Shown: positions 1 to 12,123 of the stretch, piece after piece
How positions within the stretch are numbered: position 1 is the first letter of the stretch
Layout of the letters: the number at the start of each line of letters is the position of its first letter
IMG/VR virus record: IMGVR_UViG_2802429235_000002
Coordinates: 1-12,123 of that record
Reading direction: 5' to 3' (one strand)
Length of the DNA stretch: 12,123 nt
Source: a virus
Taxonomy: Duplodnaviria > Heunggongvirae > Uroviricota > Caudoviricetes
Position numbers and translations under genes: made by a program
Notes under the pieces: model-generated
Seen by the model: only the letters and a program-made list of their open reading frames with translations
Told to the model about the DNA's origin: nothing
The model's database searches: none

Positions 1-56
1 AGGCCAGTAATGGGTTAAGTGATAACAGGTGTCTGGAAATATAGGGGCAAATCCAG
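1..56 (+). mobile_element. Insertion-sequence terminus (IS2-like, IS3 family), element body lying outside the window to the left
   Basis: Bases 1-56 are the exact reverse complement of 12068-12123. The motif TGTCTGGAAATATAGGGGCAAATCC matches my recollection of the IS2 right-end inverted repeat; family assignment is from memory, not a search. Confidence 0.5.
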
Positions 57-230
57 TAAATGCCCTTACTGTCGCATTTTCATATCTGGCATTCTCAATT
101 CCCAAGGAACAAATGCAACCAACACTGGCATCGCTCCAGCTTGAATCACTCAACCCCAAATGGTCCCAGCAACAACAAAATTCTTTCAAGTGGCTGGCGG
201 TATTACTGGAAGAAAAATATGCTGGTGAAA

Positions 231-575
231 TTACCATTTCGGCGGAGTCTTCAGTGAACCAGTAATTCTTCCCGGCAGTTTTCCTTTGTAGGTTATCCAC
301 ACACCCTGCGCCTCTAAAATTATGGGGCGCTTTTCCGGTGACTGCTCATCCCCTTCACATAACCCTGCAGCAACATCCAGGAAGACCTGTCTGATGCTCC
401 TTCTGGCTGCTGCCTCATAAAACTCCAGCGCGGCACCTTCAACACGGTCCAGCGAGATGTCCAGGTCTAAAATTTCACCGTCAAAGCGTTTTTTGTCCCG
501 TAACGCTAAAGTTACCGTAACTTTATTCTCAAAATTGCGGATCCCTTTCACAATCAGTTCATAGTTTTGAGTCAT
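231..575 (-). CDS. Hypothetical protein (114 aa) immediately downstream of the holin, same strand
   Basis: ATG at 573-575 with a GGGGAGAG Shine-Dalgarno-like sequence upstream; starts 4 nt after the holin stop, so probably co-transcribed. No motif recognised; it is not an endolysin-like sequence. Confidence 0.5.
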   Translation of the reverse strand: MTQNYELIVKGIRNFENKVTVTLALRDKKRFDGEILDLDISLDRVEGAALEFYEAAARRSIRQVFLDVAAGLCEGDEQSPEKRPIILEAQGVWITYKGKLPGRITGSLKTPPKW

Positions 576-579
576 TGAA

Positions 580-795
580 TTACTCTCCCCGTGCAGCCTT
601 ACGCTTATCTTCTTTAATCTTGAAATAAAGATTTGTCAGATACGTCAACAGGCCAAACACCAGACTACCCAGCACACCTATTGCTGCCCACTGTGAGGGC
701 GTGACTCTATCGAGCAACTGTAAAAACCAGTAGCCAGCACTGCCTGCGGAGGTGCCATAGGCGACACCTGTTGTTAACTTATCCATGGATTTCAT
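580..795 (-). CDS. Phage class II holin/pinholin, phage 21 S family (71 aa)
   Basis: The translation [71 protein letters not shown] closely resembles the S21 holin as I recall it, including the dual-start Met1/Met4 arrangement and two transmembrane segments. GAGGTG ribosome-binding site upstream of the ATG at 793-795. The longer 102-aa ORF in the track is a 5' over-extension. Confidence 0.8.
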
Positions 796-1134
796 AACCC
801 CCACCTCGCAGATGCGGGCGCTGTGTAATGGAAACAAAAAATGGCCACCAGCGGCCCGTAAAAAACACCCCGTCAAAAGCACCGGCATCCGCAGATGCCC
901 TTTGCGTGGCGTTATTTGATGCGCGCCAGGTGTGGCGCAAAGAAATGAAATAAGACTTATCGAAAATTAAGGTTAATTTGATGATTTAAACCACTTCTGA
1001 AGCTTAGTAGTATGAACATGTCCCCAGAAGGGGCCAATACTTATTATTCTTCATGGACTTTGTCCCGCGGTCTTAATCCGACGACCGCGCTACTTTTCAC
1101 CCTCTCGCAAATTGCTATCTAAAGGACGTTGTCC

Positions 1135-1167
1135 CACGAGTATTCCTGTATGCTCGTGTCTTTTTTT
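1135..1167 (+). terminator. Candidate intrinsic terminator, plus strand
   Basis: CACGAG (1135-1140) pairs with CTCGTG (1153-1158) around a 12-nt loop, followed by TC and a run of seven T (1161-1167). Confidence 0.3.
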
Positions 1168-1180
1168 GTCCTGAGAAAGG

Positions 1181-1209
1181 AATAAAAAAAACCGCCAGAT
1201 ATGGCGGTT
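1181..1209 (-). terminator. Intrinsic (rho-independent) terminator, minus strand, downstream of the tRNA pair
   Basis: Perfect 8-bp stem AACCGCCA/TGGCGGTT (1190-1209) with a 4-nt loop; on the minus strand it is followed directly by a U8 tract (plus-strand A run at 1184-1191). Confidence 0.7.
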
Positions 1210-1571
1210 GGTCAATGCAAGGGATGAATTTTTTAATTGTTATTAAACCGAGGCGTCGGGTGCCTCCCGAAGTATTCCGTGCTGCATGGATACTGTGGTT
1301 TCCCGCTAAACCGACTCTTTAAACCACCCTCGCACTGAGGAGCGCCTCTGTGGTGCTTTTACAACACCAAAATGATGCATCACCGACCCTGCCAGGAAAT
1401 ACAAAATCTCCACCGATAATGCACCATTCTGCTGCCGTAAAAAATTAGCACTGAGGCTACACCCGGCCTCAAATCATAGCCAGAGAACAGAATGCTTTTT
1501 CAAAACAACCTGCTCCCACGTAATAAAAAAATACGCCAGTGCCGTAATACAATAAGGCTTGTTTTAAATGC

Positions 1572-1646
1572 TGGAGCGGGTAGCGGGAATCGAACCCGCA
1601 TCATCAGCTTGGAAGGCTGAGGTAATAGCCATTATACGATACCCGC
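1572..1646 (-). tRNA. tRNA-Gly (anticodon UCC)
   Basis: Reverse complement reads GCGGGTATCGTATAATGGCTATTACCTCAGCCTTCCAAGCTGATGATGCGGGTTCGATTCCCGCTACCCGCTCCA. It has a 7-bp acceptor stem, anticodon stem UCAGC/GCUGA with loop CUUCCAA, a GTTCGATTC T-loop and an encoded CCA. Very similar to E. coli glyT as I recall it. Confidence 0.9.
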
Positions 1647-1649
1647 ATA

Positions 1650-10345: not shown

Positions 10346-10596
10346 GAATCAACTCCCATCAGCTTTTTCGTAGTAGTTTTATTTTTGCCAATAGTTAAAA
10401 TTGCATCGGCAGAAAATAATCCGTTTGATGCATGAGCGATTTTTTCAGCGTAATTTGTTTCGCCGGTATATTCTGTGCGAGGCAATTTTCCGTTATCCAT
10501 CCATTTGTAGATTGCTCTTTGGCTGACACCACAAACGTCGGCCACAACAGAAACGCGAACAGTTTTGATTACATCTTCAAGTGTTTTCTGGTTCAT
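10342..10596 (-). CDS. ydaS: Cro-like HTH regulator, YdaS-like (84 aa from the start chosen here)
   Basis: Start chosen at ATG 10594-10596 with GAGGGTG about 5 nt upstream. HTH-like segment VADVCGVSQRAIYKW. Divergent from the repressor gene. Confidence 0.6.
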   Translation of the reverse strand: MNQKTLEDVIKTVRVSVVADVCGVSQRAIYKWMDNGKLPRTEYTGETNYAEKIAHASNGLFSADAILTIGKNKTTTKKLMGVDS

Positions 10597-10675
10597 ATCA
10601 CCCTCACAATGTGAACTTTGAGTACATGCTATAACAGAACTGACAGTACATTCAAGAGCGAATATCATTGAACTT
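10597..10675. promoter_or_regulatory. Divergent promoter/operator region between the Cro-like and repressor genes (OR-like)
   Basis: 79-bp intergenic region containing the palindrome TCACA-A-TGTGA (10603-10613) and two direct AGTACAT copies (10620-10626 and 10647-10653). Confidence 0.45.
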
Positions 10676-11095
10676 ATGGTTCATGAAGATAAAGCGCGTA
10701 AAGAGTTCGCCAGTAGGCTTGCGCTAGCCTGTGAAAACGCTGGTTATGAACAACATGGAAGGCAGGCAGAAATTGCCCGTCGAATGAAATTAACACCAAA
10801 AGCGGTTAGCAAATGGTTTAATGGCGAAACAATTCCTCGCCGAGAGAAATTAAGGGAATTAGCAACACTCATTGGAACAACACCAACCTATCTTTTGGGA
10901 GAGGATACAGAAGAAAGTGGACAGGTACGTTTCTATCAGGAGTTAAATCCAAGACAAAAAATCATCATTGACCTTCTGGACGAGCTCCCTGACAGTGAGA
11001 CAGATGAACTTTTAAAAACTCTTGAGGAGAAAAAACAGAAGTACAATGCAATTTACGAAGAGTTAGCACGAAAGAAAAAACAAAAAGCCTCTTAA
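10676..11095 (+). CDS. XRE-family HTH prophage repressor (139 aa), RacR-like by position
   Basis: N-terminal HTH-like segment GRQAEIARRMKLTPKAVSKWFNGETIP and a charged C-terminal tail; divergent from the Cro-like gene as in lambdoid immunity regions. Start codon uncertain (weak ribosome-binding site). Confidence 0.65.
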   Translation: MVHEDKARKEFASRLALACENAGYEQHGRQAEIARRMKLTPKAVSKWFNGETIPRREKLRELATLIGTTPTYLLGEDTEESGQVRFYQELNPRQKIIIDLLDELPDSETDELLKTLEEKKQKYNAIYEELARKKKQKAS

Positions 11096-11164
11096 ACCAG
11101 CATAAATCCGGTAGCGTCCCCCTCCGGGTTTGTGCTTCACTTTATCCCATCTCATTTTTTTACA

Positions 11165-11215
11165 CACAGAATGTACTTAAAGTACTTTACAACAATGAAC
11201 ACAAAGTACATTATA
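11165..11215. promoter_or_regulatory. Operator-like palindrome cluster downstream of the repressor gene (OL/PL-like)
   Basis: Perfect 13-bp palindrome GTACTTAAAGTAC (11173-11185) and another AGTACAT copy (about 11205-11211), sharing the AGTACA half-site seen in the 10597-10675 region. Confidence 0.4.
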
Positions 11216-11382
11216 TACCTACCAACCCACCCCGCCCCACAGAACGCAGGGCAATACTTCGAGTTACCAGGCAGTGGTCAGGGGTTAAGTAGCCAGCCCG
11301 AGGCGTATGAACATGACGGCGGGATTCAAATTTTGCAGTGCAGCAGTTAGTTCCGCCACCCGGCGTTAAGGGGAGAGATAAG

Positions 11383-11517
11383 ATGGTGCATTACGAAGTA
11401 GTTCAGTTTTTGATGGATTGTTGCGATATCACTTACAGCCAGGCTGTACAGGCTCTACGCAGCAACGACTGGGATCTCTGGCAGGCAGAAGCCTCTATCC
11501 GCAACAACAAAATGTGA
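11383..11517 (+). CDS. ydaG: YdaG-like small protein (44 aa): MVHYEVVQFLMDCCDITYSQAVQALRSNDWDLWQAEASIRNNKM
   Basis: ATG at 11383 with GGGGAGAG upstream; the 44-aa length matches Rac ydaG as I recall it. Under 60 aa, so absent from the ORF track. Confidence 0.55.
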   Translation: MVHYEVVQFLMDCCDITYSQAVQALRSNDWDLWQAEASIRNNKM

Positions 11518-11527
11518 GGTGCGAAAA

Positions 11528-11680
11528 ATGCAAAAAATCGACCTCGGCAATAACGAATCCCTGGTGTGCGGCGTGTTCCCCAACCAGGATGGAACGTTCA
11601 CCGCCATGACTTATACCAAAAGCAAAACATTTAAAACAGAAACAGGCGCACGTCGCTGGCTTGCCAGAAATACTTGCTAA
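11528..11680 (+). CDS. ydaF: YdaF-like small protein (50 aa): MQKIDLGNNESLVCGVFPNQDGTFTAMTYTKSKTFKTETGARRWLARNTC
   Basis: ATG at 11528 preceded by GAGGTG, which overlaps the ydaG-like stop. Length and order match Rac ydaF by recollection. Confidence 0.55.
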   Translation: MQKIDLGNNESLVCGVFPNQDGTFTAMTYTKSKTFKTETGARRWLARNTC

Positions 11681-12067
11681 TCCATTATTTGGATTAATTC
11701 AATATTCTCGCTGTAGGGGTATAGCAGAAACCACCAAAGCCCGGAGGTGGTGAAGTAAAACCGGGCACAACACGAAGGCGCATTTCCGATATCCATAAAG
11801 AGTCGGTCTTGTCTGTTAAATTTAAATGGTGGGAGTGCGCCTCCGGTTGTGAATAACAACACTGCTGTGTGTAGTCTTGGCGGCATCAGTTTTTTCTTGA
11901 AGTTCGACTGATGTCCGCCCTTTTTAAAGTGAATTTTGTGATGCGGTGAATGCGGCTAAGCGCACGCGGCACAGTTAAAAGTCATGTTAGTCCTTATTGG
12001 TTTGGGTGGGAAAGCCGACTGTAATTGTTAACTGGTTGCAGTCACCTGGAGGCACCAGGCACCGCAT

Positions 12068-12123
12068 CTGGATTTGCCCCTATATTTCCAGACACCTGTT
12101 ATCACTTAACCCATTACTGGCCT
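12068..12123 (-). mobile_element. Insertion-sequence terminus (IS2-like), inverted copy, element body lying outside the window to the right
   Basis: Exact reverse complement of bases 1-56; identity stops precisely at 56 bp. Confidence 0.5.

Follow-up and report, generated by a model that had tools for sequence, protein, structure and literature searches.

Inverted IS2 tips at the ends of a Rac-type prophage contig, very probably left by two insertions that cut a short-read assembly

What should be made of a piece of prophage DNA that begins and ends with the same sequence in inverted orientation? The question is raised by the IMG/VR virus record IMGVR_UViG_2802429235_000002, of which the whole stretch of 12,123 nucleotides (hereafter the window) was analysed. 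A first reading of the sequence, referred to below as the original prediction, had taken its termini for the ends of two inverted copies of an insertion sequence (IS), and had proposed that these copies deleted or inverted the neighbouring prophage genes and could mobilize the segment. The analysis supports a different account with high confidence: the window is a complete contig, very probably one that a short-read assembler cut at two inverted insertions of IS2 in a Rac-type defective lambdoid prophage, whose central 12 kb it contains.

Extent and identity of the terminal repeat

Direct reading of the ends and a repeat finder both gave bases 1-56 and 12068-12123 as perfect reverse complements (100%), with identity breaking at base 57, exactly as originally described. 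The chance expectation for such a terminal pair in 12 kb is about 1e-26, and so the match is not due to chance. The length needs one refinement, in that 55 of the matching bases are IS-derived. Homology to uninterrupted prophages begins at exactly base 56 and ends at exactly base 12068, and the IS2 tip ...CAAATCCA falls at base 55 of the window; each end therefore carries exactly 55 bp of IS-derived sequence (1-55 and 12069-12123). At the 56th matching position stands a prophage G/C, whose agreement is coincidental (1 in 4), and the base next to the IS2 tip varies among copies, being A in K-12 and T in strain 504239. A 24-nt stretch in the holin gene region (763-786) that resembles a portion of the IS2 right inverted repeat at 75% and pairs with 10-33 and 12091-12114 was judged a chance similarity. 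The two tips are as follows.

1-55, plus strand: last 55 bp of IS2, right inverted repeat, tip ...GGGGCAAATCCA-3'; the IS body lies leftward, outside the window.
12069-12123, minus strand: last 55 bp of IS2, right inverted repeat, inverted; exact reverse complement of 1-55; the IS body lies rightward, outside the window.

The annotated IS2A of Escherichia coli K-12 MG1655 (in yaiX; NC_000913.3 381260-382590) terminates in ...GGGTTAAGTGATAACAGATGTCTGGAAATATAGGGGCAAATCCA, and its last 55 bp are identical to bases 1-55 of the window at 51 of 55 positions, with the same tip. The four differences (positions 1, 5, 6 and 29 of the 55-mer) are common to both window tips, which means that the flanking copies are of one IS2 variant, consistent with expansion inside the genome. 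In E. coli 504239 the 55-mer is found unchanged (55/55) as the right tip of a full-length IS2 of 1,331 bp, 95.9% identical to IS2A and bordered by the 5-bp duplication TAGAC; the 5-bp duplications seen at IS2 copies outside the window are ATTAC, TAGAC and AATAG. The exact 55-mer is present in 3,113 of 5,426 complete E. coli genomes, and IS3-family/IS2 transposase annotations lie over it among the records listed. The right inverted repeat ending in CA-3', by which membership of IS2 is recognized, is likewise present. The original assignment of the shared termini to the IS2 right inverted repeat is thus confirmed by comparison. As for the claim that two inverted IS copies flank the segment, what stands is that two IS2 right ends abut it in inverted orientation, both facing inward; the IS bodies, which in a complete IS2 would make up an element of about 1.33 kb encoding an orfA/orfB transposase with a programmed frameshift, are outside the window on both sides, and only their tips are within it.

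The window as a whole draft contig

An exact-protein look-up placed the window as the entire contig PTRI01000041.1 (12,123 bp, positions 1-12123, reverse strand) of the draft assembly GCA_002965965.1 from Escherichia sp. MOD1-EC5495, so that the ends of the window are contig ends. A de Bruijn-graph assembler stops a unique contig at the last k-mer lying wholly within a repeat, and the contig thereby keeps k bases of the repeat. Contigs made by SPAdes end in overlaps of this kind, and the largest k that the program selects automatically for short reads is 55 (PMC5481147). The present contig is complete and bears repeat-derived tails of equal length at its two ends; these IS2 tails of 55 and 55 bp fit a de Bruijn overlap with k=55 at a collapsed repeat.

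Between the tails, bases 56-12068 match, colinearly and at 95-99% nucleotide identity, the central part of Rac-type lambdoid prophages carried by complete E. coli genomes (including NZ_CP151005.1 and NZ_CP042896.1). Synteny and identity to annotated Rac genes both identify the segment as belonging to a prophage of this type. The original prediction had advised a comparison with related genomes carrying the uninterrupted prophage, and these were found: the Rac prophages of complete E. coli genomes run continuously across both junction sites.

The events that would have produced such a contig can be set out briefly. Two IS2 copies would have entered the prophage in inverted orientation with their right ends facing the segment, one between ydfR and the lysozyme gene and the other 32 bp upstream of kilR. 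IS2 being a multi-copy element, the de Bruijn assembler could not have crossed either copy and would have left either end of the contig with k=55 bp of IS2, which would yield the perfect terminal inverted repeat; the remainder of the prophage would then lie on other contigs. The most likely and simplest history would be two independent copy-out-paste-in insertions of one IS2 variant in opposite orientations, each with its own duplication (GTAAA and GCATC). IS2 transposes by copy-out-paste-in via a figure-of-eight intermediate and a minicircle (PMC3299598), a pathway that leads to simple insertions.

Three considerations weigh against this account. The value k=55 is drawn solely from the equal 55/55 depth of the tails and not from a recorded assembler or k. 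With 55 bp of each IS visible, the complete IS2 copies, their left ends and their target duplications are predicted. Lastly, the contig is silent on the orientation of the segment relative to its flanks and on whether the flanking prophage DNA is still present.

Insertion sites and junctions

In uninterrupted relatives, the left site reads ...GGGATGAT before the junction and GTAAATGCCC after it, and the right site reads ...CACCGCATC before the junction and AACAAAGTTC after it. The left IS2 follows the stop codon of ydfR by 175 bp and precedes the start codon of the lysozyme gene by about 168 bp; it falls within a small and doubtful hypothetical open reading frame (ORF) of 90 aa. The right IS2 precedes the start codon of kilR by 32 bp, the position of kilR being taken from relatives. 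The features that mark the junctions are these.

56-60: GTAAA, the first prophage bases; predicted 5-bp target-site duplication if the left IS2 is a simple insertion, the second copy lying beyond the IS, off the contig.
12064-12068: GCATC, the last prophage bases; predicted 5-bp target-site duplication if the right IS2 is a simple insertion, the second copy lying beyond the IS, off the contig.
29-265, plus strand: chimeric ORF of 78 aa that begins inside the IS2 tip and runs into the truncated small hypothetical ORF; an exact marker of the left junction.

Two insertions would predict an IS2 left end joined to ...GGGATGATGTAAA and to GCATCAACAAAGTTC... in the same genome. If each was a simple insertion that duplicated 5 bp, the left end of IS2 (TAGACTGGCCCCCTGAATCTCC...) should be joined to ...TTCGGGATGATGTAAA, and its reverse complement to GCATCAACAAAGTTCATTTG.

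In a collection of about 15 billion proteins, the exact 78-aa junction ORF occurs in one contig only, PTRI01000041.1 itself. Junction probes of 160 bp each recovered neither junction from the 5,426 complete E. coli genomes, the matches ending at bases 56 and 12068; JGI metagenome contigs had no match to the exact left junction, and GTDB representative genomes none to the exact right one. Among the public sequences searched, both junctions appear to be private to MOD1-EC5495. A group of matches (H15-H17) that apparently reach base 12121 was set aside, the extension coming from another IS2 within their own Rac prophage, a piece of which had been joined on.

IS2 is not unusual in prophages of this type. 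The Rac prophage of E. coli FDAARGOS_1249 (L002 9027-10357) carries a full-length IS2, 97.4% identical to the window variant, between the DUF1367 and NACHT genes and with the duplication AATAG, and the same prophage also has an IS5 in ydaU. A full IS2 with its 5-bp duplication at another Rac site indicates that simple IS2 insertions into Rac recur, as IS elements in general do in these prophages.

Missing genes and alternative explanations

The absence of integrase and structural genes from the window had been attributed to IS-mediated deletion or inversion. In complete genomes, the colinear prophage runs leftward into lysozyme, Rz, trkG and terminase genes, and rightward into kilR, ydaE, racC, recE, recT, ralR, xisR and intR. 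Since the window is a whole draft contig and the prophage of relatives continues on both sides, the contig ends explain the absence of these genes: most simply, the 'missing' integrase and structural genes lie just beyond the contig ends, and no deletion needs to be invoked.

The strongest competitor, itself unlikely, keeps the rearrangement. On this view a deletion or inversion, marked by the two inverted IS2 copies, took away or relocated the integrase, recombination and structural/lysis genes and left the 12-kb piece as a true prophage remnant. Inverted IS copies can indeed invert the DNA between them through homologous recombination, the prophage is decaying (Trp94 of ydaU has become a stop codon), and nothing within the window speaks against loss of flanking DNA. 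Against it, the contig ends account fully for the absent genes, both breakpoints fall in intergenic spacers and look like clean insertion junctions at the IS2 tip, and inverted repeats favour inversion and not deletion. Moreover, the copy-out-paste-in pathway of IS2 via a minicircle gives simple insertions (PMC3299598).

A second alternative, improbable on present evidence, is that the flanks are fragments of IS2, i.e. solo right ends of at least 55 bp, and not complete elements. It is compatible with the 55 bp visible at each end and with the fact that a contig break requires only that the 55-mer be repeated in the genome. The same 55-mer, however, is found elsewhere at the tip of intact 1,331-bp elements and is widespread, with transposase annotations over it among the records listed, as described above; two independent fragments with an identical tip and clean junctions are also less likely than two whole copies.

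Functional readings fare worse still. It is very doubtful that the inverted IS2 pair makes the 12-kb immunity, replication and NACHT module a cassette that recombination can invert or mobilize, or that the insertions were selected for uncoupling the control region from the lysis genes and from kilR and the excision genes, thereby locking a prophage that bears a defence gene in place.

The weakest proposal is the composite transposon of the original prediction, in which the 12-kb segment, with its NTPase gene (the NACHT gene), would travel as one unit together with an IS2 copy on either side. Its appeal is that the segment is bracketed by two inverted ends of the same IS variant, as in Tn5 and Tn10. 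When IS2 forms its circle, the right end is reported to be the sole donor and the left end to be inactive in that role (PMC3299598). With both right ends facing inward, both outer ends would be donor-inactive left ends, and the unit of IS2, segment and IS2 would thus have no donor end competent to start transposition. In addition, wherever the segment is present in the 5,426 complete E. coli genomes it is part of a Rac prophage at the usual locus and is never flanked by IS2, and none of these genomes (0/5,426) contains either junction; the same IS-cargo-IS unit was accordingly seen neither at more than one location nor with one shared target duplication. The segment also ends inside prophage operons and not at the boundary of a cargo module. 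Mobilization as a composite-transposon-like unit is, on these grounds, scarcely credible.

With two IS2 insertions in a cut contig as the preferred explanation, the gene order of relatives suggests what the insertions would have done. In the late operon, the left one would come between the holin gene and those for endolysin and Rz, and the right one would cut off kilR, recET, xis and int from the repressor-proximal early-left (promoter) region. Added to the nonsense mutation in ydaU, they give what looks like a grounded, decaying prophage, which the insertions probably help to immobilize, as part of routine prophage decay. As two inverted homologous copies, they could also invert the 12-kb segment by homologous recombination. 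The case carries a practical caution: perfect inverted termini on a draft contig, when their length equals a common assembler k, point to a collapsed repeat at contig breaks, and are not the boundaries of a mobile element or of a deletion.

Gene content between the insertions

Genes were assigned from Pfam domains, tRNA results and gene calls. In order from the left, with the strand given where it was recorded, they are as follows.

231-575, minus strand: ydfR (DUF1327), by Pfam.
580-795, minus strand: class II holin, by Pfam and by gene order in uninterrupted relatives.
1572-1725, minus strand: tRNA-Gly(tcc) and tRNA-Thr(tgt), between the Q-like gene and the holin.
2091-2633: Q-like DUF1133.
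2630-2920: YbcO.
2920-3519: DUF1367.
3986-4198, minus strand: hok/gef family toxin gene, a 70-aa ORF (Pfam HOK_GEF).
4811-7069, minus strand: NACHT and NCH1 NTPase of 752 aa, between hok and DUF977.
7171-7500: DUF977.
7516-8277: DUF1627.
8300-9046: ydaV.
9053-9910, minus strand: ydaU, replication-protein homologue, with a nonsense mutation.
9923-10345: ydaT.
10342-10596: cro-like helix-turn-helix (HTH) gene (84 aa).
10676-11095: cI-like repressor.
11528-11680: ydaF.

The genes ydfR and holin are the last of the late operon before the left IS2. The tRNA-Gly/tRNA-Thr pair is also present in strain 19KM1766N, and the closest relatives (the H1 group) have TolA-like genes in the same variable slot. 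The hok/gef gene falls within a stretch (about 3880-4555) that does not align to strain 19KM1766N.

The 752-aa NACHT NTPase is encoded in an island of low GC content (0.30-0.33 vs 0.46-0.54 in its surroundings), and its first 210 or so residues have no Pfam match. PADLOC gave weak matches to the protein, all at the level of the P-loop. It probably represents an anti-phage moron of the bacterial NLR-like kind. In the same slot, relatives have other NACHT variants, or DUF262/AAA genes.

The in-frame stop of ydaU is at codon 94, where relatives have Trp, and splits the gene into ORFs of 93 and 191 aa; the remainder is identical to YdaU of strain CFSAN061771. The stop suggests a defective prophage. 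The 93-aa fragment was also used as a probe for a near-identical relative with readable flanks; its sole other match, on Logan contig L010, is a gene truncated where that contig ends, within a prophage that has sieB, and not a relative of the window allele. The window itself has no sieB, with 42 bp (11664-11705) in place of the sieB region of about 550 bp of its closest relatives. This sieB-less arrangement is a common allele, present in 1,635 complete E. coli genomes.

Comparison with known systems

The composite transposons Tn10/IS10 and Tn5/IS50 resemble the window in that two inverted copies of one IS flank a DNA segment. They differ in that the ends of IS2 are functionally asymmetric, with donor-inactive left ends on the outside here, and there is no evidence that the unit in the window ever moved. 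Another likeness is to the repeat-induced breaks of SPAdes-type de Bruijn assemblies: the window is a whole contig whose two ends each reach 55 bp into a multi-copy IS, and the default k of SPAdes for short reads goes up to 55. The difference is that the k of this assembly is deduced and not taken from its record.

With IS2 itself, represented by IS2A in yaiX of K-12 MG1655, the terminal 55 bp share the right end, its canonical tip and a precise insertion junction, whereas the window has the tips and not the transposase genes, left ends or 5-bp duplications. With the Rac defective lambdoid prophage (ydfR/essD ... ydaV-ydaU-ydaT-racR ... kilR-recET-xisR-intR), the segment from 56 to 12068 shares gene order and the high identity given above; it is set apart by the 752-aa NACHT NTPase moron, the sieB-less allele, the ydaU nonsense mutation and the two IS2 insertions. 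The insertion of IS2 into a decaying Rac prophage, met at the breaks of a contig, is an already known kind of thing.

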